A stretch of DNA of 64,000 bases, from positions 21,935 to 85,934 of the forward strand of contig CBFDCR010000012.1 of NCBI GenBank assembly GCA_965603365.1, in the 5' to 3' direction. Positions 6,457 to 30,899 of the stretch are shown one piece after another. Each line of letters starts with the position of its first letter. Position 1 is the first letter of the stretch. Source of the DNA: an uncultured bacterium. Lineage in GTDB: Bacteria > Acidobacteriota > Aminicenantia > UBA2199. A model generated the notes under the pieces. That model saw only the letters and a program-made list of their open reading frames with translations, ran no database searches and had not been told where the DNA came from. Position numbers and translations under genes: made by a program.

Positions 6457-6649
6457 CTATTTTCTCCTTTGTCAATCTTCTAATTTTTTTGATACACATT
6501 TAAACAAACAGGAGGCGAAATCCAATTATAACGCATCCGTCTCATAGGCATATTCTATTATTTTTTCCCGGATATTGTCAAGCGGAAATAAAATTGATTT
6601 TTATTTTGATTTTTCATTCATAATATATGATAATTAACAGTGACTTAAA

Positions 6650-9113: not shown

Positions 9114-9164
9114 TCGATTGCTTTTATATACACCATAATGATATAATCGGGGACTAAAACGAAG

Positions 9165-10169: not shown

Positions 10170-10942
10170 TCCGGCAATTAAATAAAAATATCCGCCTGTT
10201 AAAGTCCGGGGAACTGTCTGAAGAAGAGTTTGTAAAGTTTTTAAAAAAGTTACCCTATGAAAATTTAGGAAACATCAAACTGGACTTTCACCGGCCCTTC
10301 AGAAGAGGGCTGCCGGAAGTCATCTACGGCCGGGAAAAAAGTCCGGAACAATTACAAAAAATCATTCATAAGTACAAAGAACTGGCTGAAGATATTCTGA
10401 TTACGAAAGTCAACCCGGATCATGTCAAATTACTGCAATCCTCCTTCGGGGATTTAATCTTCCACGAAAAAGCCGGAATTATCACCTTTAATAAAGCACC
10501 GAAAGTCAAATTTGACAGTTCCGTTCTGGTCTTGTCTGCCGGGGCTTCGGATGAGGCTGTGGCCGAAGAAGCCTATATCTCCGCCCTATACCTGGGCAAC
10601 CGGGTGGAAAAGGAGTATGATGTGGGAGTGGCCTGCCTGTCCAGGGTATTGGATCTGAAAGAGAAATTTAATGAGCAGGGTGTCATTATTGTGGTGGCTG
10701 GCATGGAGGGGGCACTGCCTTCGGTGGTGGCGGGTCTTACCGCTACACCGGTCATCGGGGTACCCACCTCTGTCGGCTATGGGGCAAACTTCAACGGAGT
10801 GGCCGCGCTGCTGTCCATGCTGAATGCCTGTGCCGGAGGGGTGAGTGTGGTCAATATCGACAACGGCTTCGGCGCCGCCTATCAGGCCACCCTGATCAGC
10901 CAGAAGATCTGCCGGGCATCAAATTCCTGTACTTTTCCTTGA
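10166..10942 (+). CDS. larB: nickel-pincer cofactor biosynthesis protein LarB (PurE-like carboxylase/hydrolase)
   Basis: PEVIYGREKSPEQL, PurE-like VLSAGASDEAVAEEA, VVAGMEGALPSVVAGL, PVIGVPTSVGYG. Confidence 0.8.
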   Translation: MIRQLNKNIRLLKSGELSEEEFVKFLKKLPYENLGNIKLDFHRPFRRGLPEVIYGREKSPEQLQKIIHKYKELAEDILITKVNPDHVKLLQSSFGDLIFHEKAGIITFNKAPKVKFDSSVLVLSAGASDEAVAEEAYISALYLGNRVEKEYDVGVACLSRVLDLKEKFNEQGVIIVVAGMEGALPSVVAGLTATPVIGVPTSVGYGANFNGVAALLSMLNACAGGVSVVNIDNGFGAAYQATLISQKICRASNSCTFP

Positions 10943-12855: not shown

Positions 12856-13107
12856 AATCCAGACCGCATTAACCCCGCTGATTTCCGCTGCTCTTCATTT
12901 TTAATTAAGTTGCCTAAGTCCAACTTACCCGGCATTTCAGCCTCCTTCATCGCTGTTTCAGGAATTCTTATGGGTATTTATTTTCATAATAATATAAAAA
13001 AGTCAAAGTTAAAGAGATTATTTTATATAATTTTCAAAGTACAAGGTAAACCCAGGAAGGCCGGTTTCCCCAACTCCCCTGAAAATATCTCCGGAATGAT
13101 TTTTTGC

Positions 13108-13136
13108 TTGACATTTTTGGATGGAATGGGTATAAA
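13108..13136 (+). promoter_or_regulatory. sigma70-like promoter (TTGACA-17 nt-TATAAA) upstream of precursor peptide 1
   Basis: TTGACA at 13108-13113 and TATAAA at 13131-13136, about 70 nt before ATG 13208. Confidence 0.45.
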
Positions 13137-13207
13137 TGTGGTGGTGAAATCGATTCGAGCTGAAGATACATTGTTGGCAGATATTAAATAAAAAAAGGAG
13201 ATATCCC

Positions 13208-13369
13208 ATGACAACCAGGAAATTTGACAAAAAATTGGTTCTGAACAAGAGAACCGTGTCCCACCTGGACAACAAAGAGATGAAAAACTTACATGGTGGG
13301 GCGAAAGTTACCCAAAGAGAAACACTATGCCCCCCCACCTGCCTTACCTGTAATTGGGAGTGTCTTTAA
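13208..13369 (+). CDS. RiPP-like precursor peptide 1 (double-glycine leader, 4-Cys core), 53 aa
   Basis: Own translation: MTTRKFDKKLVLNKRTVSHLDNKEMKNLHGG / AKVTQRETLCPPTCLTCNWECL. AGGAG lies 7 nt upstream. The leader is paralogous to those of 13399-13551 and 18794-19042. Confidence 0.75.
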   Translation: MTTRKFDKKLVLNKRTVSHLDNKEMKNLHGGAKVTQRETLCPPTCLTCNWECL

Positions 13370-13398
13370 AGCCGGTGAGTCTTTACAAGAAGGTAATC

Positions 13399-13551
13399 GT
13401 GAAGGCCAAAAAACTTAACAAAAAGCTGGTTTTGAACAAAAAGACCATGTCCAATCTGGACACAGAGGAGATGAACCGCATCCACGGCGGAAAATTCACC
13501 TTTGATTTCCCCACCTGTTACTACAGTTGCCATACCTGTTTCTGCCCGTAA
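13399..13551 (+). CDS. RiPP-like precursor peptide 2 (double-glycine leader, 4-Cys core), about 50 aa
   Basis: GTG 13399 gives (M)KAKKLNKKLVLNKKTMSNLDTEEMNRIHGG / KFTFDFPTCYYSCHTCFCP. Start chosen by alignment with peptides 1 and 3. The track shows a TTG-extended 65-aa ORF from 13354. Confidence 0.7.
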   Translation: MKAKKLNKKLVLNKKTMSNLDTEEMNRIHGGKFTFDFPTCYYSCHTCFCP

Positions 13552-13613
13552 TAATTTCCTCTATTTTGAGATTTAGCGTTAGTGGTAGTGGTATAAATCT
13601 CGACTTTTTTTGT

Positions 13614-15494
13614 TTAGCCTTTAAGCAGATTTAGCAGGCCGGTGGTGAGGAAGGGGAGGTAGGTGATGAGCAGCACCGATGCCAGTTGGATGAAGAAGAA
13701 GGGCAGTACATCCTTGTAGATCTTAGCCATGGGTTCATTGAAACGGTAGGAAGCCAGGAACAGATTGAGCCCCACCGGTGGGGTCAGGTAGCCCAGTTCC
13801 ATGTTGGCCAGGAAGATGATGCCCAGGTGTACCGGGTGGATGCCGAAGATGTTGGCCAGCGGGATGATGAGGGGCACCACCACCATGATGGCGGAAAAGA
13901 TGTCCATGAAACAGCCGGTAATCAGCAAGGCCACATTGAGGAAGAGCAGGAATACGTATTTTGAGCTGATGGTGGCCTTGACCCAGGCGGTGAGCTGCAT
14001 GGGCACCTGGGCATCCACGATGAAGTAAGAGAGTCCCTTGGCTAAGGCCAGGATGGACAGCACCCCGCCAATAATGGGCAGGCATTTTAACAGTACCCCG
14101 GATAGGTCTCTGAGTTTCAGATCCCGGTGCACGATAAACTCGATGACAAAGGAATAGACGACAGCCAGGGCCGCACTCTCCACTATGGTGGTGAGTCCGC
14201 CAAAATAACTCACCAGGATCACCACCGGCAGTAAAATTTCCCAGATGGATTCCCGAACCGCGCTTAGAGCCTCTTTCAGATTGAAAGGTTCACGTTCTAC
14301 CTTGTTTCTGCTGGCGTAAATAATACCGAAGATGATCAGGGCCAGGACCATCACAAAACCCGGTATAATGCCGCCGACGAACATGTCTTTGATACTCACC
14401 CCCGCGGCTACCCCGTAGATGATAATGGGCAGACTGGGGGGGAACAGCAGCCCGATGCTGCCGGAAGCCGTTAATAGGCCGATACCGAAGCGGCGCCTGT
14501 ATTTACCCTGGATCAATACATAGGAGAGAAGACCTCCCAACGCCAGGATGGTCACCCCTGAGGCGCCGGTAAAGGTGGTAAAAAACGTACAGACCAGGAT
14601 GGCCATGATGGCTAAGCCGCCGGGAAACCAGGAAAAAAACGATTTAAACAGCCGGACCAGCCGTTCGCCGGCCTTACTTTCCGACAGGATGAAGCCGGCC
14701 ACCGTAAACAGGGGAATGGCGGGGATCGAGTGGCTGATGAGCATGGCATAGGCTTCGTTGGGGATGACCTCCAGGGGTTGCCCCATTCTGGCAAAGAGCA
14801 TGTAGGCAACACCCCCCAGCACCACGAAGATCGGTGTGCCGAATATGGCCGAGACGATCAATATGATGATTATGGGCACGGCGATCGCCCCGTTGACGGC
14901 GTGAAAAGCCTCCACCAATGGAAAGGTAAATGCCGGTACTGTATCGGTGAGCGCGCTCAGGATATTGACAATGGGTTCGAGGGCCAGCAGGGTGCCCAGC
15001 AGGAGGCCCAGGCTGGCAAAGAGTTTGTTCATGCCTTTTTTTTCCAGTCTGGTGACGAAGCGAATCGCCATCACCCCGTAACCAAAGACCATGACCGTGG
15101 CGATGAGCTGGATGGAGATCTTGCCGATTTTATTGGCCGGATCGAAACCGTTGAGAACCAGGGAGAGGGAACTCCAGGCCAAGGCGGTGGTAATCATGGC
15201 CGACAGCAGCGCCAGCCCGGTTTTGATCCAGGTCTTTAAGGGTTCCGGTGTTTTCAATTCTAAGGATAACGAGAGGTGTTTGCCCTCCCGGGAGGTAATC
15301 ATGCCGCCGATAAAGGTGATGACTAAGACCAGGTGGTGGGTATACTCGGTAGAACCGGCCACACCGGTGTGGAAAAATTTACGGGCAATGACTTCCATGA
15401 AGGGAAACATGGCGATCAGGAAGATGAATATATAAGCCAGCAGGTTCTCTAACTTCTGTAAATAGAGAAAAATATTTTTAATTTTTATTTTCAT
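13614..15494 (-). CDS. TRAP transporter fused small/large permease (DctQ-DctM fusion)
   Basis: 626-aa polytopic membrane protein. The N-terminal ~160 aa are DctQ-like and the rest DctM-like. Downstream of the SBP gene with a 17-nt overlap. Confidence 0.8.
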   Translation of the reverse strand: MKIKIKNIFLYLQKLENLLAYIFIFLIAMFPFMEVIARKFFHTGVAGSTEYTHHLVLVITFIGGMITSREGKHLSLSLELKTPEPLKTWIKTGLALLSAMITTALAWSSLSLVLNGFDPANKIGKISIQLIATVMVFGYGVMAIRFVTRLEKKGMNKLFASLGLLLGTLLALEPIVNILSALTDTVPAFTFPLVEAFHAVNGAIAVPIIIILIVSAIFGTPIFVVLGGVAYMLFARMGQPLEVIPNEAYAMLISHSIPAIPLFTVAGFILSESKAGERLVRLFKSFFSWFPGGLAIMAILVCTFFTTFTGASGVTILALGGLLSYVLIQGKYRRRFGIGLLTASGSIGLLFPPSLPIIIYGVAAGVSIKDMFVGGIIPGFVMVLALIIFGIIYASRNKVEREPFNLKEALSAVRESIWEILLPVVILVSYFGGLTTIVESAALAVVYSFVIEFIVHRDLKLRDLSGVLLKCLPIIGGVLSILALAKGLSYFIVDAQVPMQLTAWVKATISSKYVFLLFLNVALLITGCFMDIFSAIMVVVPLIIPLANIFGIHPVHLGIIFLANMELGYLTPPVGLNLFLASYRFNEPMAKIYKDVLPFFFIQLASVLLITYLPFLTTGLLNLLKG

Positions 15495-16488
15495 GCAGCT
15501 TTCGGTATTCTTCCAGATAACCGTTTACCTTCTCATAGATCTCTTTAGAAAAGGCTTTACCCACCAGTACGTCCATTCCTTTGAACGACTCGGACCTCCA
15601 GGCGGAAACTGCGTCTTCCGTGACTTCGTGAATTTTTAGACCGTTTTCGATCATGGTGTCGATGGCCTCTTTCTCCAGTTGACCGATTTCCCCGGATAAT
15701 TTTTTTTGAAGTCTCCGGGTAACCGCCAGCATTTCCTCTCTATACTTTTCGGGGATGCGCTGCCAGACCCGCTGGGAGAGCACGATGCCGCCCACTAAGG
15801 GGGCGATTTTAAGAGAACTCATATGGGGGGCCAGGCTGAAATATTGACCCGAGGCGGCTATCAGGGGCGGGAGGTAAAAGGCATTGACCATGCCGCTCTG
15901 CAAGGCCATCATCAGATCCTTTAAATTCTGAGGTACCACCTGGTAGCCCGATTTCTTCCAGGCCTGCTCCATCCGGGGTTCACCGGTGGTGAAGGATATC
16001 TTGTACTTCCGCATATCTTTGGGGTATAATACCGGTTTCTCGGTGAAGAAGTTGATCCAGCCGGATTTGGTCCAGATAATCAGCTTAAATCCCTTGCCCT
16101 CGATTTCCTTCTCAAATTGAGGTATCAATCGCTCTAACACATAGTCGAGCTCCGCTTCGGAGTTGAACAACAGGGGAATATTCAATACGTACATTTCCTG
16201 GTATAATTTGATGAGGCCCCAATTGGTCAGGGCAGCGCCTCCCAGGATACCCATCCTCATTTTGCGGATGGTATCTTCTTCGTTTCCGGCAATACCGCCG
16301 GGATATATCTTGATTTTGACTGTGCCGTTGGTGATCCGGGCCCACTCTCTGCCCAGCTCTTCCATGGCCTTGTCCCAGGGCGACCGGTCAGGGGCAATGC
16401 TGCCGAGTTTGATGGTCAAGCCCAGGGCAGATAGGCTGAAAAGCATTATAATCAACAGGAAAAAAAAAATGGTTTTGTTTATTTTCAT
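15478..16488 (-). CDS. TRAP transporter substrate-binding protein (DctP family)
   Basis: Signal peptide plus a DctP-like fold sequence (GSIAPDRSPWDKA...). Lies between the TatT-like and permease genes. Confidence 0.75.
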   Translation of the reverse strand: MKINKTIFFFLLIIMLFSLSALGLTIKLGSIAPDRSPWDKAMEELGREWARITNGTVKIKIYPGGIAGNEEDTIRKMRMGILGGAALTNWGLIKLYQEMYVLNIPLLFNSEAELDYVLERLIPQFEKEIEGKGFKLIIWTKSGWINFFTEKPVLYPKDMRKYKISFTTGEPRMEQAWKKSGYQVVPQNLKDLMMALQSGMVNAFYLPPLIAASGQYFSLAPHMSSLKIAPLVGGIVLSQRVWQRIPEKYREEMLAVTRRLQKKLSGEIGQLEKEAIDTMIENGLKIHEVTEDAVSAWRSESFKGMDVLVGKAFSKEIYEKVNGYLEEYRKLHENKN

Positions 16489-17468
16489 TTAAAACCTTCC
16501 TCCTCATGGCAATTTGTATCGTCGTCCGATTGATCGGCATCGTACTCTATAAAGTAATCCCCCACATGCTTCAGCAAGAAGCAGGCCTTGCGGCGGTTGA
16601 TGGTGTGGAGCAGCCGGTTTTCCGGATCAGTGTCCGGATCGATTTTTAAAACCTTTTCCAGCAGTTGTTTAAATTGAGCCAGATCCTGCTCCTTGACACA
16701 CACGGTGGTGGCCAGGGAGAGATATGCGGAAGTCGATTTTTCCCCCGAGGCATCTACGGCCGATTTGAAGTGCTGCCGGGCTTTGTTAAAATCTCCCCCC
16801 ATGTATTCGGGCATGGACCCGTAGTATAACACATAGAAATCGTGGAGGGCCCCCTGGTTAAAGGCAGGATCGAGTTCCAGCACCTTATCCATCATGGCCC
16901 TGGCCCGGGGTACCGTAATGCCCAGTTTCATGTCGAAGGGATCGATGGCAAAAGCACCCAGCCAGCCGGCGGCCGCCCAATAGAGCAGGGACACATCGTC
17001 TTTTTTCATATCTGCCAATGCTGCTTCATATTTCTTTTCATCCAGGGCCTTGCGGAAACCGGGGTGTTTGTGCTCCAGCCCATCCAGCAGGATGTCCCGG
17101 CCCCTCAAGTATAAATTCCTGGCCCGATTGTACATGAATTCCTGTTTTTTGTACTCTTCTTCGGAGAGCATGCTGGCGGGGGTCTGGATAAAGGCATTGG
17201 CGTACATGACATATAGACTGCCGATTCTTAACTGTAGACCCTCGTGACCCGGCACTGAGACCATCAGGCTTTCGTACATCTTGATGGCAAAGGGCAGGGC
17301 ATCGCCCACCAGTTCGGGGTCGTTATCGCCGGTAAAAACCGTACTCGATCCCGGTGCGGAAAGCATATCCGCCACCTTTTTAGTGGCCATTTTAGTGATG
17401 GAGCAGCCGCCGCTTAAGATGAGCAGCACCGGAATAACGATAAAAATAAGCATTCCTTTCCTTTTCAT
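16485..17468 (-). CDS. TatT-like TPR lipoprotein of a TPR-protein-associated TRAP transporter
   Basis: Lipobox LILSGGCS and a helical TPR-like body. The gene order T component, SBP, fused QM matches the Treponema TatT/TatP/TatQM arrangement. Confidence 0.6.
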   Translation of the reverse strand: MKRKGMLIFIVIPVLLILSGGCSITKMATKKVADMLSAPGSSTVFTGDNDPELVGDALPFAIKMYESLMVSVPGHEGLQLRIGSLYVMYANAFIQTPASMLSEEEYKKQEFMYNRARNLYLRGRDILLDGLEHKHPGFRKALDEKKYEAALADMKKDDVSLLYWAAAGWLGAFAIDPFDMKLGITVPRARAMMDKVLELDPAFNQGALHDFYVLYYGSMPEYMGGDFNKARQHFKSAVDASGEKSTSAYLSLATTVCVKEQDLAQFKQLLEKVLKIDPDTDPENRLLHTINRRKACFLLKHVGDYFIEYDADQSDDDTNCHEEEGFK

Positions 17469-17565
17469 CTTTTGCCTCCTCCTTGCCGTTGATATCCAAT
17501 TAAATATTTTTTCATGCCTGTCTCTAAACTCTCTATTCTACAATAAATAAATAATCGTTTGGAAT

Positions 17566-17582
17566 CCAAACGAGTAAATTTA
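17566..17582. promoter_or_regulatory. palindrome CGTTTGG-aat-CCAAACG upstream of the TRAP operon (possible operator)
   Basis: Perfect 7-bp inverted arms read directly, about 100 nt upstream of the TatT-like start codon. Confidence 0.3.
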
Positions 17583-17689
17583 ACTTATATTATACTATAT
17601 TTTACGAAAAACGCTAATCTTTGGTCCATTTATCTTGAAATTTTACATAAGTTTAAACAATTCGGGGCTGCTGCCGAAGAGAAGTTTTT

Positions 17690-17719
17690 GTTGACTTTTT
17701 TGTATTATTGTTCTATAAT
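17690..17719 (+). promoter_or_regulatory. promoter module TTGACTTTTTTGT...TATAAT (copy 1 of a shared module)
   Basis: TTGACT at 17690-17695 and TATAAT at 17714-17719. The sequence through about 17745 is near-identical to the minus-strand module at 30790-30845. Confidence 0.55.
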
Positions 17720-17789
17720 AATAGCACAATGAAACAAAAAGAGAGCAAGTCAATCAATTTTGACAACATAAAAGAGGGAGGTTATCACC

Positions 17790-18092
17790 ATGATCAAAAA
17801 AGGTCTTATATTCATACTTTTCTTGTTACTGGTCGTCTTTGTTTCCTGCCGGGACAAATCTCTGGCAAATGAAGCTAAGATTGGGGAGAATATCCGCAGT
17901 GCCGTTGAACTGTTTCAAGCCGCGCCGGCCCGGGCGGTAGAGGGGCAAGAGAATCCGGCGGGAAAGGGTTTTAAATTACTCCTGGAGGCCGTGACGCTGA
18001 CCCTGCCGGATACGGATTTTCCCGATGAAGTGAAGGAGAAGATTCTGCTGGCCCGCCAGAAATTCCAGGCTGTTCCTGACATCTTTAAATAA
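17790..18092 (+). CDS. small lipoprotein; the reading frame continues after one in-frame TAA to 18308
   Basis: Signal/lipobox LLLVVFVSC, SD GAGGGAGG. ORF 18120-18308 is in the same frame, separated only by TAA 18090-18092. Confidence 0.5.
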   Translation: MIKKGLIFILFLLLVVFVSCRDKSLANEAKIGENIRSAVELFQAAPARAVEGQENPAGKGFKLLLEAVTLTLPDTDFPDEVKEKILLARQKFQAVPDIFK

Positions 18093-18318
18093 AATGAGGA
18101 GCGGGACGCCGCGCTAAAATTGCTTTTCGAGGCCAGGCAGTTATTGAAACCCCAGAGGAACATGGCCACCGCGCCCTTCAAGATCGCCGAAAATGTAAAA
18201 AAACACCTCGACGCCGCCCTGGCCCACCTGGAGTCTGCCGTCCCCCACCAAACAGCCCTCTCTATCCTGGACGCCCTCCTCCTCATATTCCCCACCCCCA
18301 CCGACTAATTCACTCATC

Positions 18319-18395
18319 TACAATGCAAATTGCAAAATACCCAACAACCAACAGCCAATGGAATCTTTAAGTTCTCATTTTGCAATTTGCCATGT
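18319..18395. repeat. palindromic dispersed element, copy R1 (arms TGCAAATTGCAAAA / TTTTGCAATTTGC, heptamer-repeat core CCAACAA CCAACAG CCAATGG)
   Basis: Inverted arms read directly. Related copies at 44191-44330, 31775-31826 (partial) and 47459-47505 (partial). Confidence 0.7.
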
Positions 18396-18433
18396 ATCTG
18401 GGAAAACCGAAAGGGGACAATTTTCCCCACCCT

Positions 18434-18685
18434 GGTAACCCACAACATTTTGTCGGTACAACGTCTCATTTTGCCGGTACATTACGACAAAACGGCGGTA
18501 CAACACGACAAAGTGGCGGTACAATGTGACATTTGTCCGGTACAATGCGATATTTTTATGGTCCGCGTGATATCTTTGCGGTACAACATGACAGAATGCC
18601 GGTACAATACGATATATTTCCCGTCCCCACGACATTTTACCGGAACAACACCCCATTTTGGCGTTACCACACGCCATATTGAAGG
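18434..18685. repeat. degenerate tandem array A, about 11 units of 21 bp (consensus CGGTACAAYRYGACAWWWTGN)
   Basis: Units start at 18454, 18475, 18496, 18517, 18538, 18579, 18600 and so on. The region is open in several frames on both strands, as expected for a stop-free repeat. Confidence 0.75.
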
Positions 18686-18793
18686 TCCCATTACCCGCGC
18701 CGAGGCAGATTTCCAAAAAATGAGCCGACCACAGATGCGGCATAAAGTAATGTCATACACCGTGTAGGGGAAACAGGGGAAATGGGAAGAGAG

Positions 18794-19042
18794 TTATGGA
18801 CAATAGAAGGTGCACATAGTTATCGTCCAGTAGGTGGGCACGCAGTCGATAATCGTTTCGCAGTAAGGTTCGACGAATGTAATGCAACCGGCTGCTGTAC
18901 ATCTTGGTTCGTTGGTTTGACATTCGATGGGGCAAGTTACTGTAACACGGCCGCCTCTTACTTGACTCAGTTCATCATTACCAAGGTTGGCAATGGTTTT
19001 TTTGTTTAGCACCAGTTTTTTTGAAAACTTTTTTGTCTTCAT
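18794..19042 (-). CDS. RiPP-like precursor peptide 3 (double-glycine leader, 8-Cys 51-aa core), 82 aa
   Basis: MKTKKFSKKLVLNKKTIANLGNDELSQVRGG / RVTVTCPIECQTNEPRCTAAGCITFVEPYCETIIDCVPTYWTITMCTFYCP. SD GGAGGA upstream. The C-terminal CP end resembles peptide 2. Confidence 0.75.
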   Translation of the reverse strand: MKTKKFSKKLVLNKKTIANLGNDELSQVRGGRVTVTCPIECQTNEPRCTAAGCITFVEPYCETIIDCVPTYWTITMCTFYCP

Positions 19043-19138
19043 GGTATTAATCCTCCGTTTTTATATAGTTTGTTTTGTCTAACTTGGCTGCAAAAATCAA
19101 AGGATGCCTTTCTTTTCGACCTTCCTTTTGCATATAAC

Positions 19139-19166
19139 AGTATATGTATTTAACAAAAAAAGTCAA
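19139..19166 (-). promoter_or_regulatory. promoter TTGACTTTTTTTGT...TATACT for precursor 3
   Basis: On the minus strand: TTGACT (19166-19161), 16-nt spacer, TATACT (19144-19139). Shares the TTGACTTTTTTGT -35 block with 17690 and 20388. Confidence 0.5.
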
Positions 19167-19226
19167 TAAGTATTTCTGCATTTTTAATTTTAGAATCTCT
19201 GGGGGACAGCCCAAAAATCGCTTCCC

Positions 19227-19255
19227 TTGACAATTTTGTGATTAAATTCTATACT
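19227..19255 (+). promoter_or_regulatory. consensus promoter TTGACA-17 nt-TATACT
   Basis: TTGACA at 19227-19232 and TATACT at 19250-19255. GGAG at 19262 and ATG at 19272 follow. Confidence 0.5.
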
Positions 19256-19271
19256 ATTGCTGGAGACGACA

Positions 19272-19574
19272 ATGGCAGAAGTTATACGTATCAATGAAAA
19301 TATAAAAGATATTTTATTAAAACATACCCAAAAGCAGACCCCGGAAGAGAGTCTCAATGAGATATTAAAGAATGAAATCCACAGAAAGATTAAGAGATAC
19401 CTTTTGATGGTTAGACATTTTGAGAGGAAATATAATACTGATTTTGACCGCTTTGAGGCGATGAATAAAGACACCAGGATGGATTATGAAACGGAAAAAG
19501 ATTACTTTGACTGGGACATGGCCGTCACTGCCTTAGAAGATTTACATACGGAATTGACCCAACTCCAGCCATAA
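19272..19574 (+). CDS. hypothetical helical protein (antitoxin-like size and charge)
   Basis: 100 aa from ATG 19272 (MAEVIRINENIKD...). No family recognised. Confidence 0.4.
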   Translation: MAEVIRINENIKDILLKHTQKQTPEESLNEILKNEIHRKIKRYLLMVRHFERKYNTDFDRFEAMNKDTRMDYETEKDYFDWDMAVTALEDLHTELTQLQP

Positions 19575-19581
19575 AAAACTT

Positions 19582-19926
19582 TTTGAGGAACCCAAAATAG
19601 TAATAAGACAAACATCAGATAAAATTGTAGCAACATACGATGAAAAACAATTTTATGCCCTGAACAATGTAATTATTTTAAAACTTAATCATAATATAGA
19701 TCTTAATTACAAATTCATTCTCTGATTTCATCAAAGAAATCAAAAATCAAAAGACATCCCTCTCCAAGAAAGAAGAATTTGACTTAATGGGTCTATTTGA
19801 AGAACAAAAGTCCAACACCCTGACCCTCCAAAAGGAAATTGACCAGGTCGACAGAGAAATCGACCAGATGGTATATCAATTATACGGGCTGACCGACCAG
19901 GAGATTAAGATCGTAGAGGAGTCATA
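19582..19926 (+). pseudogene. remnant of the C-terminus of a type IIG / Eco57I-like restriction-modification enzyme (frameshifted, 5'-truncated)
   Basis: Own translation, frame A 19582-19725: FEEPKIVIRQTSDKIVATYDEKQFYALNNVIILKLN... (TaqI-like specificity-domain pattern). Frame B 19727-19926: ...LQKEIDQVDREIDQMVYQLYGLTDQEIKIVEES* (typical C-terminal tail of these enzymes). Confidence 0.6.
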
Positions 19927-19972
19927 ACGCAATTTTCGGTTGTCCCCTATTTTTCGTCCCGAAGTGTCCGTT

Positions 19973-20311
19973 TCCGGACAAAATTTCTCTGATGTCAGAG
20001 AAAATCTTTCCGACGTCAGATAAAATTTCTCCGATGCCGGACAAAATTCTTCCGATGCCAGACAAAATCTTTCTGATGTCAGACAAAATTTCTCCGATGC
20101 CAGATAAAATTTCTCTGACGCCAGACAAAATCTTTCTGATGTCAGACAAAATTTCTCCGATGCCAGACAAAATCTTTCCGACGTCAGACAAAATTTCTCC
20201 GATGCCAGACGAAATTCCTCTGATGCCAGACAAAATCTTTCTGATGATGTCAGACAAAATTTCTCCGATGCCAGACAAATTTTGTCCGATAACGGACACC
20301 ATTTATCCGTC
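19973..20311. repeat. tandem array B, 16 units of 21 bp (G[TC]CAGACAAAAT[CT]T[TC]TC[CT]GA[TC]) with 42-bp alternation
   Basis: Units counted by hand from 19973 (one 24-bp unit at 20225). Alternating variants are GTCAGACAAAATTTCTCCGAT and GCCAGACAAAATCTTTCTGAT. Confidence 0.9.
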
Positions 20312-20387
20312 GTCGTCGAGTAACATTTACTCGTGGTTGGCAATCACCTCTTAGCAATAACTACTTGAGGATGCCGCCTCAATGCTC

Positions 20388-20416
20388 TTGACTTTTTTGT
20401 TATGGTTCTATACAAT
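20388..20416 (+). promoter_or_regulatory. promoter TTGACTTTTTTGT...TACAAT for the propeller/rSAM gene string
   Basis: TTGACT at 20388-20393, 17-nt spacer, TACAAT at 20411-20416. ATG 20422 begins 6 nt after the -10 box. Confidence 0.5.
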
Positions 20417-20421
20417 ATGAA

Positions 20422-21471
20422 ATGATAGAAAAGAGGGTTCCGTGCATTGAGGAGTGGGAGGTATTGCCCAAAGCTGGGGCGTTTTATAAGAGAGTCACTG
20501 TGTTTATCCTGTTTGCGGTATTACTTCACTGTGCCTTTTATGCCAGCCAGGTGGATTTGCCGGAAGTATTGGCCCCTGCCTCTATCCATGTATACGGCGG
20601 CCGAATGTTCATTGCCGAAGCCGCGGCCATTCACATTTACTCGTTGAAGGACTTTAAACAGATAAAGCAATTTGGTCGGCAGGGTACGGGGCCGGGTGAG
20701 TTTTTCCGGGATACCAGACTCACCGTTTTCCCGGAGAGACTCGTGGTAAACACCTTTGGAAAACTGATCTTTTTTTCCCATGATGGCCTGTTGATGGAAG
20801 AGCACAAAAAAGCCGTTGAAATTATGTGGATATATCCGGTTGGCGATTGTTTTGTGGGGTCTGAGTTTGTACCCAGGGTTCAGAAAATCAACATCTATGA
20901 TGGAAATTTTCATCGTGTAAAAAATATCTTCGAGGGCTCGATCGGCTGGGTCTCATATTTCGAGAGCGGAACCGCAAAACAGGACCTCATTATGGTCAAG
21001 GATTACGCTGCACCGCATGTTTATAAAGATAAGATCTATATTTTTGATTCATCGAAGGGTTTCTTCTTTGCTGTTTTTGACAGCAGTGGAAAGAAGATTT
21101 TTGAGAAGAACATAGAGTATAAACCGCCGAAGGTCAGCGCCGACTACAAGAAGGAGAGGTTGAGACGGCTGGAAGAATCCCCCTGGTTCAAGAGTAGCAA
21201 AGATAGGTTTAATCCTGTATTCCCCGATTTCTTCCCTCCATACCGGTCGGTACGAATTTCAGATGACAGGATATACTTCGTTACTTATCTAAACATCGAC
21301 AATAAAGATGAAGTCGTCGTCACCGATTTAGAGGGCAATCTCATAAAGAAAACGTACATCCCCGCCACCCTTTACGACAAATACATCTTTACCATCAGCG
21401 GCAATAAGGTATACTCTCTAATTGAAGACGACAAAGAAGAATTATGGCAATTACTCATAGGAGATTTATAG
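20422..21471 (+). CDS. six-bladed beta-propeller-like exported protein (paralogue of 29758-30759)
   Basis: FGRQGTGPGEF motif and repeated beta-strand pattern; hydrophobic N-terminal segment VTVFILFAVLLHCAFYA. An alternative start is TTG 20464, preceded by GGAGTGGGAGG. Confidence 0.6.
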   Translation: MIEKRVPCIEEWEVLPKAGAFYKRVTVFILFAVLLHCAFYASQVDLPEVLAPASIHVYGGRMFIAEAAAIHIYSLKDFKQIKQFGRQGTGPGEFFRDTRLTVFPERLVVNTFGKLIFFSHDGLLMEEHKKAVEIMWIYPVGDCFVGSEFVPRVQKINIYDGNFHRVKNIFEGSIGWVSYFESGTAKQDLIMVKDYAAPHVYKDKIYIFDSSKGFFFAVFDSSGKKIFEKNIEYKPPKVSADYKKERLRRLEESPWFKSSKDRFNPVFPDFFPPYRSVRISDDRIYFVTYLNIDNKDEVVVTDLEGNLIKKTYIPATLYDKYIFTISGNKVYSLIEDDKEELWQLLIGDL

Positions 21472-21487: not shown

Positions 21488-21673
21488 ATGATAAAAAATT
21501 TCTTTGGAGGAGTTGAAGAGCCGATGACCCCGGAGTCGGTTACCCTGGGTTGTGGTTGTTGGTGCAGTTGCGAAGGGGCCTGTGGCGATCAAAACGGCAA
21601 TAGTACCAGCATGACTGATTTGAATTGCTCACCGTTTCCTAAAGTTGCAATTATTTTGCCACCCCCAGCTTAA
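21488..21673 (+). CDS. Cys-rich small peptide, candidate rSAM/SPASM substrate
   Basis: MIKNFFGGVEEPMTPESVTLGCGCWCSCEGACGDQNGNSTSMTDLNCSPFPKVAIILPPPA. Strong SD AAAGGAGG 5 nt upstream. Lies 51 nt upstream of the rSAM/SPASM gene. Confidence 0.6.
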   Translation: MIKNFFGGVEEPMTPESVTLGCGCWCSCEGACGDQNGNSTSMTDLNCSPFPKVAIILPPPA

Positions 21674-21724: not shown

Positions 21725-23311
21725 ATGCCACCACATCATATGAAAGTACTGGAAAGCAAAAATAAAGATAATGCTGACCCTCAGATTTGGGCCAAACTCT
21801 TTGAAATTAACGAGAAAAGATATTGTTACGATGTGGGGACTAACCATATTATGGAAGTTGATGATGTCTTGTATGAGGTCTTGAAAAAATACAATTATTC
21901 CAATAAAAAGAGGATAGCCGCAGATTTGTCATCCAGATATTCGGTTGAGGATATTGAAAGAGCGGTTGGCGCGGTGGACGAATTCAGCCAGGCCAAAGGG
22001 GGATTTATACTTCAAAAAAGGATTCGTCTGGCGTTTCCTTTCAGCCAGCGTGAATATAAGTTTCTTCTGGAACATTTTCTCAGTCATCTGATTTTGAATA
22101 TTACAGAAGACTGCAATTTACGTTGTAAATACTGTGCGTTCAGTGGGAGTTATAAATATAGAAGGACTCACAAAAAAGTTTCGATGCCATGGCCGGTTAT
22201 TCAGAAGGCAGTTGATTTCTTTATCCCCCGAACCGTTTTGAGGATAAATGAATTAAAGAGGCCTGTGTCTTTTGGCTTTTATGGAGGAGAGCCCCTATTG
22301 GAGCCAGGGAAAATGTTCAAAACGGTGGAATACGTTCGGCACAGATGGCCGGATATTTTCCCTGAGATTAATTTTGCCATCACCACAAATGGGACTTTGC
22401 TTTCCCGAGAAATAATTGACCCATTAATAAAGTATAATTTTGGGATTACTATAAGTCTGGATGGTTACAAGGAGTTACACGATAAGAGCCGCATTTTTAT
22501 GAAGGGAGGGGGAACGTACGACATAATAATGAAAAACATTGATTTAATTAAAAAAATTGACCGTGAGTATTTCAGACAAAGAGTATTTTTTGCTGGGGCC
22601 ATGTCCCCCCCATATGATCTTCACGGAATACTTGAATATTTTCGCAGGGAGTTCCCAAACCAGGAGATCCCAAATGTGTATAGCCTGGTGGATGAATTTG
22701 ACACCGATTTTTTCGATAATTTCGATATGGATGAAGAGAATAGAAAATATGCACAGCAATCCTTTGAAGCCAGATGTGAATTTATAAAGAAAAAAATGGA
22801 AGGTGAGGATGATCCCATATTATCTGGTTTTATTCAAGATAATACAATGGACATCCATAACAGGAAACTTTTCAGTCTCCCGGAAGCGACATATCCCAAT
22901 GGTTGTTGCCCCCCAGGATTAAAAAAACTTTTTGTGGACACGGAAGGAAGATTTCATGTATGTGAGAGGGTGAATTCATATTTTAGCATTGGAGATCTGG
23001 ATAATGGATTTGATATCCCCAAAATATTCGATCTAATAGACGGATACTCAAAAGCAGCCGATCACTGGAAATATTGCTGGGCGATCAGGTTTTGCAACTC
23101 TTGTTTTGTCTCCGTTATTGAGGGCGATCATTTCTCAAGGGAGAGAAAAAAGACAATGTGTGAGAGAACAAAAGGCGACATCTTAAGTCGGCTGGTTACG
23201 TATGTCTATCTGGCGGAGCATAATCCCCGACTATTTGATAAAAAGTATTTCAGAGGGGAAGATACGGTGGGGGATCTGGTAAAATACCTCCAGCAGAATA
23301 AGTTACATTAA
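21725..23311 (+). CDS. radical SAM/SPASM-type peptide-modifying enzyme
   Basis: ITEDCNLRCKYCAF (CxxxCxxC), FYGGEPLL, and a C-terminal Cys cluster (CCPPG...GRFHVCERV...CWAIRFCNSC) like the SPASM auxiliary-cluster domain. About 100-aa N-terminal extension. Confidence 0.8.
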   Translation: MPPHHMKVLESKNKDNADPQIWAKLFEINEKRYCYDVGTNHIMEVDDVLYEVLKKYNYSNKKRIAADLSSRYSVEDIERAVGAVDEFSQAKGGFILQKRIRLAFPFSQREYKFLLEHFLSHLILNITEDCNLRCKYCAFSGSYKYRRTHKKVSMPWPVIQKAVDFFIPRTVLRINELKRPVSFGFYGGEPLLEPGKMFKTVEYVRHRWPDIFPEINFAITTNGTLLSREIIDPLIKYNFGITISLDGYKELHDKSRIFMKGGGTYDIIMKNIDLIKKIDREYFRQRVFFAGAMSPPYDLHGILEYFRREFPNQEIPNVYSLVDEFDTDFFDNFDMDEENRKYAQQSFEARCEFIKKKMEGEDDPILSGFIQDNTMDIHNRKLFSLPEATYPNGCCPPGLKKLFVDTEGRFHVCERVNSYFSIGDLDNGFDIPKIFDLIDGYSKAADHWKYCWAIRFCNSCFVSVIEGDHFSRERKKTMCERTKGDILSRLVTYVYLAEHNPRLFDKKYFRGEDTVGDLVKYLQQNKLH

Positions 23312-23375
23312 TCGTGAATCCCGAAATAACGATCAATAGATCTCAAAATCATAGAATAGTTTAAAGAGGTTGACG

Positions 23376-25256
23376 ATGCCCAAAGATGGGATAAAACGAA
23401 TAGTGATGCATTGGATGCCGCCGGCAATGATTACGACCCCTTCCCTTTCCTACTCTATATTAAAAAGTTTCATGAATCAGCATGGGTATGATAGCGAGAT
23501 TATTTATTGGAATCAGTTGATATTTAAAATCATGAGACCATTCTTTTATGGTGGGAGGCTTCAAGATTCTGCTGTAGACAATTTATTTCTTGCACCCTTT
23601 TTATTGGAGATTTCGGATAAGTACAGTGACACCCTTAAAAAGAAAAGGGTTTTATCTTTTTTGCGGAGTAATTTATTGAAATTTACAATCAAGGAGGATG
23701 AAGTCGAAGAATATATTTGGGATATTAGGGGAAAAATCGGGCGCTTAGTGGATTCCATTCTGGCTGAGATGGAGGCCGAGAATATTTTCCTGTTCGGATT
23801 TTCCAGTAAATTTTTTCAATGGCTCCCCGGCATGTTACTGGCGGAAAAGTTAAAAGAAAAGTTCCCCGGGATTAAAATAGTAATTGGCGGGTTTGGAGAT
23901 CAGAACGCAGCCCGAGAAATACTTCACCTGTGTCGATATTTTGATTTTGCCGTGTGGGGGGAGGGGGAATATCCACTTCTCGGACTCTGCCAGCGATTGG
24001 AAGATGGTGGCAATCGTTTCGAGTCGATCCCCCGGTTGTTATATTGGGGGCAAGGGGAGGAGATTAAGGCCACCTCATCCCGCAGCCGCTATTTAAATTT
24101 TGATAACTATATGTATCCTGACTTTTCAGATTTTATCGAATCTTATAACAATGAAGAATTGAGAAAAAATATTTACTTTCCCATTGAATCCTCCAGGGGC
24201 TGCCACTGGAACCGCTGTAAATTTTGTACTTTGAATGTGGGGTATAAATACAGAACCCGATCCCCCGAAAGTATTGTTCGGGAGATTGAATTTATGTTTG
24301 ATAAACATAAAATACACCGTTTTCGATTTGCAGACAACGATATTGTGGGAAAGAGCATAGGGCAGTTTGAAAGATTACTGGAGATGGTCACTGCATCATC
24401 ATTGAGAAATCGGGTCAAGTATGACCTCTATGCAGAGATTGTCCACCACGGATTCAATTCCCGGCTTATAAAAAAAATGGCAGTCGCGGGTTTTACCCAC
24501 GTTCAGATCGGCTACGAAGCCATTACCGATGGCTTGTTGAAAAAGATTGATAAAAAAGCAGATTTCGCCGATCATATCCTTTTTGTAAAATTCGCTTCAA
24601 AATATGGAATTTCTATAACCGGAGCCAACATCTTACGGGGGATTATCGGCGAGACCGAAGACGACGTTCTGGAAGGTATTCATGATTTGACATTTCTAAG
24701 ATTCTTTTTAAAAGATGCACCTATTCAGTTTTATCATTATATAAGTGAGCTGCGACTTTCTGGAGGGAGCCGGTTTTTCCAGATGTTGAGCCTGGAAGAG
24801 CGTAAAAAATGGAACGCTAGCGCCATGACTTATTTTATCCCCCAGTGGTTCATCGTGAAAGATAACGATCGACGTTTTGGGCTGTTTTCCTTTTCCAGGG
24901 AGTTGGATAATAAAGTCGAATGGGAAAATTTTGAAAAGTTAAATAACTTTCTCGAAAAAACCGAGGTAACGTATCAAATACTTGAAAATAACGGGATTTA
25001 TTATTACAGTGAATTCATGGCCGGGAAGCGGGTGAATTATATCGTGTTCGATGAACCGGAATATTGGCAGGTATTAAAAGCTGCCAACAACGAGGTAAAA
25101 TCTTTTAAAGAAATATTCGCCGAAGTCAAGACAAAATTCCCCGGTATTATCGAAAAATATCTGGTTGAGATTATTGAAAAACTAAAAAATGATTTTTTGA
25201 TTTACTCCAACAAAGATTTAACGAGAATTGTATCAGTCATGGACACCGGTGAATAG
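23376..25256 (+). CDS. B12-binding-domain radical SAM protein (RiPP-maturation rSAM type)
   Basis: N-terminal Rossmann-like region, then ESSRGCHWNRCKFCTL (CxxxCxxC variant typical of class B rSAM). ATG 23376 follows AAGAGG; the track starts at TTG 23370. Confidence 0.75.
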   Translation: MPKDGIKRIVMHWMPPAMITTPSLSYSILKSFMNQHGYDSEIIYWNQLIFKIMRPFFYGGRLQDSAVDNLFLAPFLLEISDKYSDTLKKKRVLSFLRSNLLKFTIKEDEVEEYIWDIRGKIGRLVDSILAEMEAENIFLFGFSSKFFQWLPGMLLAEKLKEKFPGIKIVIGGFGDQNAAREILHLCRYFDFAVWGEGEYPLLGLCQRLEDGGNRFESIPRLLYWGQGEEIKATSSRSRYLNFDNYMYPDFSDFIESYNNEELRKNIYFPIESSRGCHWNRCKFCTLNVGYKYRTRSPESIVREIEFMFDKHKIHRFRFADNDIVGKSIGQFERLLEMVTASSLRNRVKYDLYAEIVHHGFNSRLIKKMAVAGFTHVQIGYEAITDGLLKKIDKKADFADHILFVKFASKYGISITGANILRGIIGETEDDVLEGIHDLTFLRFFLKDAPIQFYHYISELRLSGGSRFFQMLSLEERKKWNASAMTYFIPQWFIVKDNDRRFGLFSFSRELDNKVEWENFEKLNNFLEKTEVTYQILENNGIYYYSEFMAGKRVNYIVFDEPEYWQVLKAANNEVKSFKEIFAEVKTKFPGIIEKYLVEIIEKLKNDFLIYSNKDLTRIVSVMDTGE

Positions 25257-25359
25257 CGAAGGGTGGGGGAGGAGTCGGATTTGTTGACATGGGGGGGGAA
25301 TTAATTTAAAATTTGTTTTGGTGTGAAATTGTTTTAATAAGTAGAGGTTGAAGCGGTCT

Positions 25360-26100
25360 ATGAGAAGTGTGGTTCAGGTAATAAAAAAGTCGGGTTCGTC
25401 GAAACAGATGGTGATGTTTCCCTTTGGGGGCGGCAGCGGCTATTCGTTTATGGAACTGGTCAAGGAGATTACGGCGGATGCCGAAGTCATCGTGATCAAT
25501 CCGCCGGGTCACATGTTCAACAACGGCAAGCCCCTGGAGAGTATCGATGCCATGGCCTATCTCTATTCAAGGGAACTCCTCCCTCTTTTAAAAGAGAACT
25601 GCCTGTTTTTCGGCCACAGCATCGGCGCACTGGTAGCCTATGAGATGTGCCGGGACTTAGAACGGAAACTGAATATTAAGAAACTGATCATCTCCAGTGT
25701 CAATCCCCCCCACTGTGTGATGGCTGAGGTGGATATGCATTCCGGCATGGATACGCCGCAGTTGATTCAAAAATCGATAAAAATGGGCGGCATGCCGGAG
25801 ATCTTCAAGGAAGATTCCGATCTGCTGGAGAAGTTCATCGCCGGTTTGAGGGCGGATTTGAAGGCCCTGGAGAGATATGACGGCGGTAAATGGGCCGATG
25901 CCGGTAAAATAGGGACCGGCGGCCTGGTATTATACAGCGACGGGGATTATATTGTCGATCCGCTGAAGGTAAGAGAGTGGAACCGGTACCTGGATTGTTC
26001 AGATTTCGTCCAATTTTCCGGCGACCACTTCTACCTGTTCGAGCCGGCCAATCTAAAAGCGGTGGCCCGGCTGCTATCTACCCAGATCAATATGGGGTAG
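25360..26100 (+). CDS. type II thioesterase-like alpha/beta hydrolase
   Basis: MVMFPFGGGSGYSF (like FPYAGG), nucleophile elbow GHSIGA, C-terminal GDHFYL (His). Start uncertain (TTG 25348, ATG 25360 or ATG 25408). Confidence 0.7.
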   Translation: MRSVVQVIKKSGSSKQMVMFPFGGGSGYSFMELVKEITADAEVIVINPPGHMFNNGKPLESIDAMAYLYSRELLPLLKENCLFFGHSIGALVAYEMCRDLERKLNIKKLIISSVNPPHCVMAEVDMHSGMDTPQLIQKSIKMGGMPEIFKEDSDLLEKFIAGLRADLKALERYDGGKWADAGKIGTGGLVLYSDGDYIVDPLKVREWNRYLDCSDFVQFSGDHFYLFEPANLKAVARLLSTQINMG

Positions 26101-26127
26101 ACCGCTTCACCATAAGGGAAGGTAAAC

Positions 26128-27363
26128 ATGAAAAAGTGGGGAATTTATTTTGTTTTTTTTCTATTTTTTAGCCTATCTGCAACGGCCGAAGAGATCCACG
26201 TTCTGGCCGCCAATGGGGAGTTGACCAAAATTCAGGCCTTACTGCAAAAGCAGCCGGAGTTGGTAAACCGTCTGGATCAGGACAAATGGACGCCCCTGCA
26301 CTTTGCCGCTCTTGGGGGCCATCTTAAGGTGGCGGCGTGCCTGGTTGACCGGGGAGCAGAGGTCAATGCCGTGGATAAATATGGGTTGGCGCCCCTGGAT
26401 CTGGCGGCACTGAAAGAGTCCGACCCCCTGGTAGATCTGCTGATCCGCCGGGGCGCCGAAATACGCTCCCGGGAGGAAATATTGGATCGTCTGGGACAGC
26501 GCACCGAAATACCGGTGTTAAACTTCAAGAAGGAGTTGGTGGAACTGCTGGCCAGTAAGGGAATCACCCCGGAGGCGGGCTCCCGGAGCTTCAGCGCCAT
26601 TACCCTGGTGATGGCCATCATGAAGGTGAGGGAGGATGTGGCCGGTATTAAGGATTTAAAGGAGTTGGACCAGAGGCCGACGTTTCATCCGGGTACGACG
26701 TCGCTCCACCAGGCGGCCGAAAAAGGGGATTTGCCCCGGGTCAAATACCTGGTTCAGTCGAATCCCCGGGCGGTGAATGTGGGAGATGAGTTTGGCATTA
26801 CCCCCCTTCACTTTGCCGCCATCAACAACCAAAGGGAAGTCGTCGAATATTTGATTGCCCAGGGAGCCCTGATAAATACCAGAACCCACAAGGGTATAAC
26901 CCCTTTATACGGGGCCTGCAGCGAGGGCCGTAAGGAAATCGCAGCATTGCTGATTGCCAGGGGTGCGGTTGTCAATGCCGCCACTGTGGAGGGCGCTACC
27001 CCCCTTCATGCTGCCCCCACCCGGGAAGTAGCGGAACTGCTGATCAAGCATGGGGCAAAGGTGATGGCTCTGAACAAGTATGGCTATACCCCCCTGCACA
27101 TCGCCGCCCTCTACGGGCATACCGCAGTGGCCAGGTACCTGATCTCAAGGGGGGCGGGGGTCAATCAAAAGAACGTGTTTGGCTGGACCCCGTTAATGGA
27201 GGCGGTCTACGGTAACCATGGGGACGCGGTGCTGCTGCTGCTGGAAAAGGGGGCCTACGTTAATGCCAAAAATCAAAGCGGTTCCACCGCGCTGGAGATT
27301 GCTACTATTTTAAAAAGCCGTGAGATAGCCGCTATCCTCCGGAAACACGACGCCTTTCGCTGA
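26128..27363 (+). CDS. secreted ankyrin-repeat protein
   Basis: Signal peptide MKKWGIYFVFFLFFSLSATA and multiple TPLH[FI]AA...G....LL..GA..N repeats. Confidence 0.85.
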   Translation: MKKWGIYFVFFLFFSLSATAEEIHVLAANGELTKIQALLQKQPELVNRLDQDKWTPLHFAALGGHLKVAACLVDRGAEVNAVDKYGLAPLDLAALKESDPLVDLLIRRGAEIRSREEILDRLGQRTEIPVLNFKKELVELLASKGITPEAGSRSFSAITLVMAIMKVREDVAGIKDLKELDQRPTFHPGTTSLHQAAEKGDLPRVKYLVQSNPRAVNVGDEFGITPLHFAAINNQREVVEYLIAQGALINTRTHKGITPLYGACSEGRKEIAALLIARGAVVNAATVEGATPLHAAPTREVAELLIKHGAKVMALNKYGYTPLHIAALYGHTAVARYLISRGAGVNQKNVFGWTPLMEAVYGNHGDAVLLLLEKGAYVNAKNQSGSTALEIATILKSREIAAILRKHDAFR

Positions 27364-30759: not shown

Positions 30760-30816
30760 GTTTCCTCCTGGACTTTTTAAATGAAAGCAAAGCTTTTTTT
30801 GTATCATTGTGCTATA

Positions 30817-30845
30817 ATAATAGAACAATAATGCAAATTTGTCAA
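30817..30845 (-). promoter_or_regulatory. promoter module (copy 2): TTGACA-17 nt-TATTAT, near-identical to 17690-17745
   Basis: Minus strand: TTGACAAATTTGCATTATTGTTCTATTATTATAGCACAATGATACAAAAA, compared with TTGACTTTTTTGTATTATTGTTCTATAATAATAGCACAATGAAACAAAAA at 17690. Confidence 0.55.
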
Positions 30846-30899
30846 CCCCAAAATTTTTTTTCTTGACTGCCCGAATCATGAACCGCGAATCAGGAAAGA

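Follow-up and report, generated by a model that had tools for sequence, protein, structure and literature searches.

The window analysed here is the whole 64,000-nt stretch of contig CBFDCR010000012.1, from an uncultured bacterium of the Aminicenantia, and our subject is a small gene on its minus strand, 18794..19042, which encodes an 82-aa precursor that we call peptide 3. Its sequence is MKTKKFSKKLVLNKKTIANLGNDELSQVRGG (leader) followed by a core that begins RVTVTC and ends MCTFYCP. From the ATG start, 31 leader codons (19042..18950, minus strand) spell an LxLxKx5L...GG pattern, 51 core codons (18949..18797, minus strand) follow with 8 Cys and 10 Thr, and the stop codon occupies 18796..18794 (minus strand); the gene was read from the list of open reading frames (ORFs) and from the sequence. 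The first-pass annotation, made from the letters of the window alone, had described the ORF, its 31-aa leader and its 51-aa core with 8 Cys in these terms, and re-reading bears it out. Peptide 3 is a real, conserved precursor gene, with a Bacteroidetes-type leader that was already known and an eight-Cys core that is new.

The expression signals lie close by. A ribosome-binding site, GGAGGA (19056..19051, minus strand), stands 8 nt 5′ of the ATG and is invariant in an upstream alignment of five loci. A promoter scan places a sigma-70-like promoter (minus strand, 10/12 match) at TTGACT 19166..19161, a T-rich spacer of 16 nt and TATACT 19144..19139, a position that predicts a transcription start near 19132 and a 5′ untranslated region (UTR) some 90 nt long. 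Loci L002, L003 and L005 conserve the −35 and −10 regions, the orthologous promoter in L002 being without the T-run. No significant structure was found in the 5′ UTR (fold z = 0.03), and a structured 5′ UTR or a terminator near the gene was rejected as a candidate with fold z of about 0; the Rfam search for known RNAs gave merely sub-threshold miRNA noise, situated in a repeat array (array B, described below). An intergenic scan for small Cys-rich ORFs behind a ribosome-binding site found peptide 3, its paralogues peptides 1 and 2, and an ORF at 21488..21673, with no others.

Within the peptide 3 family the ratio of nonsynonymous to synonymous substitution rates (dN/dS) is 0.06–0.4 for the leader and 0.18–0.67 for the core, and no defined comparison reaches 1. 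This marks the ORF as a coding gene that purifying selection maintains, and its leader is more constrained than its core, as is usual for precursors of peptides synthesized on ribosomes and modified post-translationally (RiPPs). Locus L005, from a close strain, is 98.5% identical to window positions 18248–19221; its peptide 3 carries one amino-acid change, V11M in the leader, and a core without any nucleotide change. Exact look-ups of the window's peptide 3 and of P0031 returned no record.

The leader family

Peptide 1 (13208..13369, plus strand, 53 aa) and peptide 2 (13399..13551, plus strand, 50 aa, GTG start) have leaders of the same type and cores with four Cys; a promoter-like site of the pair, with TTGACA, a T-run and TATAAA, is at 13108..13136 (plus strand). 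The identity of 17/31 leader positions that had been counted by eye between peptides 3 and 1 stands, and we count 17 of 31 between peptides 3 and 2 as well. The NCBIfam model NF038153 (lant_leader_L1a; the corresponding Pfam entry is PF28317, Lant_leader_dom) matches residues 1–31 of peptide 3 with 44.5 bits and E = 1.2e-11, and gives peptides 1 and 2 scores of 36.4 and 40.1 bits. All three exceed the curated cut-off of 22, so that by its leader peptide 3 is the third paralogue it had been taken for. In peptide 3 the motif reads L10-V-L12-N-K14-KTIAN-L20...G30-G31, ahead of the eight-Cys core; this is the LxLxKx5L plus GG signature of class I LanAs in Bacteroidetes, as defined by Walker et al. 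2020 (PMC7268733).

A profile of the peptide 3 family was searched against 1.84 billion cluster representatives and matched 1716 of them at E <= 1e-3 and just 9 at E <= 1e-10; hence the leader is widely common and conserved, and the core narrow and variable. Precomputed PF28317 matches are present on 7/9 full-length homologues of peptide 3, and all 15 members of a mixed alignment of relatives match NF038153. With so many profile and model matches, the concern raised at the outset, that the similarity of the leaders might be a Lys-rich coincidence dissolving once many homologues are compared, falls away.

TIGR04149, a model of radical S-adenosylmethionine enzyme (rSAM) targets with a cut-off of 25, gives 17.4 bits for peptide 3, 24.8 for peptide 1 and 31.4 for peptide 2, so only the last passes; at E <= 0.01 it is matched by 13 of the 15 relatives. 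This leader type is served by LanBC enzymes with C39 peptidases (PMC7268733), by pairs of SPASM rSAMs (PMC4573289) and by ATP-grasp enzymes (PMC8939145), and for this reason the name of the leader model cannot decide the enzyme. The leader type being already catalogued, an automatic annotation would call peptide 3 a class I lanthipeptide; here caution is needed, for the model is named after one enzyme class and the leader is common to all these systems.

The core family and its chemistry

The core family comprises nine full-length metagenome homologues of 77–87 aa that are 60–99% identical. In their alignment 7 Cys and 7 Thr are invariant, and so are the blocks TCP..C.TN(E), CT.AGCIT.VE(P).C and T.T.CTFYC. 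This family is small, new and undescribed. A PDB search with the core found nothing, and metagenome and viral scans for further core-family loci (queries A3 and A1) yielded pattern matches of which none was confirmed. Distant relatives share the first four-Cys module, TCPxxCxT[ND]ExxCTxxGC, and then run into unrelated C-terminal parts; the peptide 3 core appears to be this widely common first module with a lineage-specific extension.

That the eight Cys might represent a duplicated four-Cys module had been suggested, and found no support: the N-terminal half compared with the C-terminal half gives p = 0.15–0.76 (local alignment, 8 family members, 2000 shuffles), and only the short motif C-x-T-x(1-2)-E-P-x-C recurs twice within the core. 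Nor does the supposed likeness of the tail MCTFYCP to HTCFCP of peptide 2 rise above composition-matched shuffles (p ~0.37). A similarity of the whole core to those of peptides 1 and 2 was likewise rejected (p ~0.3–0.37, not significant overall); the CPxxCxT core start is common to peptides 3 and 1.

Every one of the invariant Thr is followed, towards the C-terminus, by an invariant Cys at a T-x1-5-C spacing (mostly x2-5), which is compatible with lanthipeptide rings, and we take the TxTC...C start of the core to resemble the intertwined rings D/E of nisin. Ser stands in place of Thr at conserved TxTC positions in P0008, P0181 and P0228. Across 145 cores of the leader superfamily, which have a mean length of ~36 aa and contain 16.3% Cys and 15.2% Thr, the number of Cys is odd in 74 and even in 71; one long-core member of the family, a paralogue in L001, has 7. 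Such a lack of even-number parity, together with a Cys content close to that of Thr, argues against disulfides only and favours one non-Cys partner per Cys, as in a thioether. To judge from these patterns thioether chemistry on peptide 3 is likely, and the Ser/Thr interchange would fit dehydration slightly better than links to the Thr C-gamma. Were the maturase identified, a peptide densely cross-linked by as many as eight rings would be obtained from the family.

The L001 locus has two long-core paralogues in tandem, at 9071–9298 and 10001–10252, with identical leader peptides (leader-codon dS 0.23) and diverged cores of 7 versus 8 Cys; they adjoin three further leader-type genes and a sigma-54 two-component pair. 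Homogenisation of the leaders or diversification of the cores could account for this pattern.

The neighbouring operon in related loci

The plus strand carries, next to peptide 3, an operon of a beta-propeller and rSAM genes to which the first-pass annotation had linked it. The first gene (20422..21471) encodes a membrane-anchored, 6-bladed beta-propeller-like protein with weak DUF5128 and TolB_like matches. After it comes a 61-aa Cys-rich small ORF of no known family (21488..21673, plus strand; MIKNFFGGV...GCGCWCSC...), directly upstream of the gene for a CteB/CcpM-like rSAM/SPASM peptide maturase (21725..23311, plus strand). This protein is the sole thioether-type RiPP enzyme in the window and a candidate maturase. 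Its scores remain below the curated cut-offs throughout: 314.8 bits against 500 for its best model, TIGR04068 (CcpM), 150.8 against 300 for TIGR04148, 118 against 425 for TIGR03974 and 136 against 340 for NF047865. The best PDB match is 5WGG, which we take to be CteB (E = 3.6e-24, residues 33–459); with the rSAM as single query, a search of genome contigs gave a Ruminococcus match only, 36% identical. The next gene (23370..25256, plus strand) encodes a B12-binding rSAM resembling RiPP C-methyltransferases, with B12-binding and Radical_SAM domains and 197 bits for TIGR03975 (below 282). No LanB, LanC, ATP-grasp enzyme or C39/ABC exporter was found among the large ORFs scanned in the 64-kb window.

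Guanine-plus-cytosine (GC) content is 39–44% in the propeller, rSAM and B12-rSAM genes; the flanks have 49–56% and the peptide 3 core 47.7%, and the operon is a low-GC module of its own. A thioesterase-fold gene (51% GC) and an ankyrin-repeat gene (56% GC) follow the B12-rSAM on the plus strand at 25348–27363; they are host-like in composition, unlike the operon, are not conserved after it in L006 and L007, and may lie outside it.

We compared the window with loci holding homologues of either part, around which ~10 kb of flank is visible. Three of these, L006, L007 and L015, have rSAM homologues of 47–56% identity. With the window they make four loci, and in 4/4 the propeller, the small ORF, the rSAM and the B12-rSAM occur together, the propeller homologues holding the same operon place in L006, L007 and L015. 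The small ORF, MIKNFFGGVEEP...LGCGCWCSC...DLNC.P.P in the window, stands directly before the rSAM/SPASM gene in every case (L006 9643–9837, L015 6594–6782, L007 9711–9881); M1, I2, F5, G7, G8, V9 and the GCGCxCxC block are invariant, giving the pattern MIxxF[FY]GGV...GCGCxCxC. A homologue search with the small ORF returned its self-match only, and these relatives were found by their position. Leader-type peptides near the operon number 0/3 in L006, L007 and L015, within the reach of those loci. Because the small ORF is present in 4/4 loci and no leader-type peptide is seen in the other three, the operon has a candidate precursor of its own. The small ORF is probably the cognate precursor, as its position and conservation suggest, and the propeller, peptide, rSAM and B12-rSAM probably constitute an undescribed system.

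The comparison from the side of the peptides agrees with this. L001 and L002 contain homologues of peptide 3, and L008–L010 contain leader relatives; L001 has five leader-type peptide genes, the homologue in L002 stands alone, and no rSAM or other maturase lies within ~10 kb of the peptides in L001, L002, L008, L009 or L010. L005 diverges from the window at 19221, and beyond that point it has a TPR-kinase gene and another leader peptide where the window has a rearrangement scar, array B and the operon. L011 and L012, 92% identical to the window over 13068–18309, keep peptides 1 and 2 by a TRAP operon, with no rSAM within 10 kb; peptide 1 is kept in L011–L014, and the core of peptide 2 is identical in L011 at 92% nucleotide identity. 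Neither LanB/LanC nor ATP-grasp nor a C39/ABC exporter is among the called genes of L001, L002, L005 and L008–L014. A hidden Markov model of the leader, built here, found no leader-type peptide in 80 viral-contig SPASM loci, whose enzymes are distant, so that this result has little weight. The functional tie of peptide 3 to the propeller and rSAM genes is therefore not conserved, the operon having its own small ORF in 4/4 loci and peptide 3 having the TPR-kinase beside it in L005. The L005 genes in question encode a 65-aa leader-type peptide with 9 Cys (127–324) and a 706-aa protein with TPR and Ser/Thr kinase domains (508–2628), both absent from the window.

A promoter block had been the other proposed link. 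The window contains 6 copies of the TTGACNTTTTT block where 0.35 would be expected, and 5/6 occur within 12996–20398. One belongs to the promoter-like site of the propeller/rSAM operon (20388..20416, plus strand; TTGACT, 17 nt, TACAAT), a site of the neighbouring module for which action on peptide 3 is not indicated. Two more precede genes that show no apparent connection with the peptides or with the rSAM operon, one at 17691, before a small lipoprotein-like ORF in a region conserved in L011, and one at 12996 (minus strand); the one at 29127 falls inside coding sequence. The statement that peptide 3 carries the block found at 17690 and 20388 is right as to the promoter type, which is common, and wrong as to literal identity, for peptide 3 has seven T after TTGAC whereas 17691 and 20388 have six. 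Likeness among the aligned promoters is confined to the −35 and −10 boxes and the T-run; the inferred transcriptional link from peptide 3 to the rSAM string is not supported, and an operator common to five promoters was rejected, there being no similarity outside those elements. The block is a common strong-promoter form and no evidence of a regulon.

Peptide 3 had also been placed between two inverted 21-bp arrays. The arrays exist: array A (18434..18674), degenerate and with a 21-bp period, is downstream of peptide 3 and 98.5% identical in L005, and array B (19946..20290), with the same period and ~15 units, is between peptide 3 and the rSAM operon and absent from L005. They are not inverted. 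Their units agree at 13/21 positions directly, a weak likeness with p ~0.017, and at 10/21 in reverse complement, which is chance. All reading frames are open across array B, and strict 21-bp tandem arrays with differing units are found in variable regions elsewhere (L001 18519–18695, L011 5101–5340, L015 1–63). Between peptide 3 and the operon there is, besides array B, a 105-aa ORF and a frameshifted restriction-modification remnant (19563..19927, plus strand), consisting of a TaqI_C specificity-domain fragment (E = 4.1e-9) and then a ...YGLTDQEIKIVEES tail, which we interpret as a rearrangement scar.

Readings of the locus

The explanation we prefer, and to which we give about an even chance of being right, is that peptide 3 is a functional, separately transcribed member of a dispersed precursor family, conserved in the leader and variable in the core, that would be matured in trans. 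It would be transcribed from its own sigma-70-type promoter and translated from its strong ribosome-binding site. The leader would then dock the prepeptide on a leader-specific maturase acting in trans, one that is not a conserved partner encoded by the gene next door. Thioether rings within the molecule would join the 8 Cys to Thr (or Glu) residues that are conserved to the same degree; the 1:1 ratio of Cys to Thr, their T-x2-5-C spacing, the interchange of Ser and Thr and the absence of even Cys parity point to this step. By analogy with its type the leader would be cut after Gly-Gly by a C39-type peptidase/exporter encoded elsewhere. As to the maturase, unlinked class I machinery of the LanB/LanC type is possible though doubtful, and the adjacent rSAM operon, as a rival, has about the same weight; another unlinked leader-specific enzyme, for example a SPASM protein of the TIGR04148 type or an ATP-grasp enzyme, appears unlikely. 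The propeller/rSAM/B12-rSAM operon would then stand beside peptide 3 by an arrangement specific to this strain, in a variable island.

Several points weigh against it. The trans-acting enzyme is hypothetical, since no LanB, LanC, ATP-grasp or C39/ABC exporter is seen in the window or the fetched homologous loci. A thioether-type rSAM/SPASM has three leader-type peptides at no more than 8.5 kb, which chance would hardly produce if such genes are only a few in the genome. Peptide 2 passes TIGR04149 (31.4 against 25), which 13/15 relatives match at E <= 0.01, and the rSAM operon could be present in the related genomes beyond the visible 10-kb flanks.

If peptides 1–3 are instead substrates of the adjacent operon, the CteB/CcpM-like rSAM/SPASM would add Cys-to-Thr/Glu carbon thioethers, as in sacti- and ranthipeptides, the B12-rSAM would C-methylate, and the propeller and other genes would serve export or immunity. 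We regard this as possible and still doubtful. The operon lies close (1.4 kb from peptide 3 and 6.9 kb from peptides 1 and 2), its rSAM belongs to the thioether-forming SPASM clade, the leader family overlaps the TIGR04149 rSAM targets, the −35/T-run promoter type is shared, no other RiPP enzyme is present in the 64 kb, and Bacteroides clusters of a peptide, a lipoprotein and two rSAMs have a similar layout (PMC4573289). Yet in 4/4 loci the operon comes with a conserved small Cys-rich ORF of its own, whose N-terminus is unrelated, and the operon's three relatives have no leader-type peptide nearby; the adjacency is lost in the 98.5% identical L005, and peptides 1 and 2 persist elsewhere without the operon nearby. 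The operon's GC content is 39–44% against a background of 48%, the curated cut-offs of TIGR04148, TIGR04068 and TIGR03974 are missed, and the Ser/Thr interchange at conserved positions speaks against Thr C-gamma links. A combinatorial rSAM system of an uncultured Gram-negative lineage, resembling that of the prochlorosins, in which one promiscuous rSAM/SPASM thioether synthase with the B12-rSAM as methylase would serve in trans many dispersed LxLxKx5L-GG precursors with hypervariable Cys/Thr cores, the unusually long one of peptide 3 among them, and besides these an unrelated second type of precursor, MIKNFFGG...GCGCxCxC, seems rather unlikely to us.

Peptide 3 might also be an unmodified double-glycine-leader bacteriocin or signal peptide, bacteroidetocin-like, with four disulfides and a leader that serves only export by a C39 peptidase-containing ABC transporter (PCAT). 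The GG leader, the even count of 8 Cys and the lack of a maturase conserved beside peptide 3 in any locus suit this idea; the Cys parity of 74 odd to 71 even over the 145 related cores, the L001 paralogue with 7 Cys, a Thr as abundant and conserved as Cys, and a window in which no PCAT is seen make it improbable. The reading of peptide 3 as a relic ORF, decaying or without function, within an island undergoing rearrangement would suit a setting of restriction-modification pseudogene, repeat arrays and synteny breakpoints. Almost no credence attaches to it, as the ORF, ribosome-binding site and promoter are intact, the L005 protein differs by V11M alone with the core nucleotides unchanged, and dN/dS is below 1 in all defined comparisons.

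Known systems resemble the locus in part. With Bacteroidetes class I lanthipeptide precursors (NF038153, pinensin-type, PMC7268733) peptide 3 shares the leader, at twice the model cut-off, the LxLxKx5L motif with its GG end, and a Thr/Cys-rich core with T-x2-5-C spacing. It departs from them in having no LanB, LanC or C39 peptidase in the 64 kb or the related loci, in that genes of the peptide 3 type are scattered and stand alone instead of being clustered with a synthetase, and in a 51-aa core that is longer than the ~36-aa mean and matches no described lanthipeptide. The GG-Bacteroidales system of TIGR04149, TIGR04148 and TIGR04150 has a related leader type (peptide 2 passes), Cys-rich cores and a layout of a peptide, a lipoprotein-like protein and two radical-SAM proteins. 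Here, however, peptide 3 (17.4 bits) and the rSAM (150.8 bits) fall short of 25 and 300, the second enzyme is a TIGR03975-like B12-rSAM and not the pseudo-rSAM TIGR04150, and a different small ORF is in the operon's precursor position.

CteB and CcpM enzymes cross-link Cys to carbons of Thr, Asp, Glu or Asn in Cys-rich peptides, and the neighbouring rSAM resembles those of the SCIFF/CteA-CteB and CcpM ranthipeptide systems in aligning with CteB (5WGG) and having CcpM as its best model. Unlike in those systems, all curated cut-offs are missed, the SCIFF precursor model is unmatched, and the leader of peptide 3 has no relation to those of SCIFF peptides. In comparison with ranthipeptide and sactipeptide systems generally (CteB, CcpM, PapB-type), the co-occurrence of peptide and enzyme is not conserved, a leader-type precursor being beside the maturase in 0/3 operons. 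Prochlorosins, many dispersed precursors that are served by one promiscuous maturase, ProcM, and whose leader family is Nif11, resemble the peptides in setting a conserved leader on hypervariable cores; they differ in leader family and organisms. Also in common is that a genome carries several precursor genes, of which many lie at a distance from any maturase (PMC7268733).

What is new, then, is an undescribed core family (51 aa, 7 Cys and 7 Thr invariant), the occurrence of such precursors in this lineage as scattered stand-alone genes and not as cluster members, and the failure of a tempting assignment of peptide 3 to the adjoining rSAM operon under comparative tests. For cluster-based RiPP mining the last is a caution that proximity in one genome is not linkage.

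L011 and L012 jump from window position 18309 to ~47.5 kb, and because they are without that segment, 18.3–47.5 kb looks like a variable island. The segment of ~29 kb (~18300–47500) that L011 lacks between the TRAP operon and a NACHT/FGE-sulfatase gene holds peptide 3, the rSAM operon, a second TolB-like propeller (29758–30879), SIR2, a PRiA4_ORF3 protein and lipid-synthesis genes. A dispersed element of ~80 bp, similar to miniature inverted-repeat transposable elements and with inverted repeats TACAATGCAAATTGCAAAAT ... ATTTTGCAATTTGCCATGTA, occurs at 18319–18396 and 44191–44331 and in part at 31776–31803. Its copy at 18.3 kb is 10–70 bp past the end of synteny with L011 (18309) and past the contig breaks of L005, L013 and L014 (18248, 18267). 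Farther away on the minus strand, at ~6156–6476 and 5112–6119, the annotation of the collinear L013 places a small thioredoxin/PedC-like protein, a 335-aa radical-SAM gene and a gene with Pkinase and Lcl_C domains.

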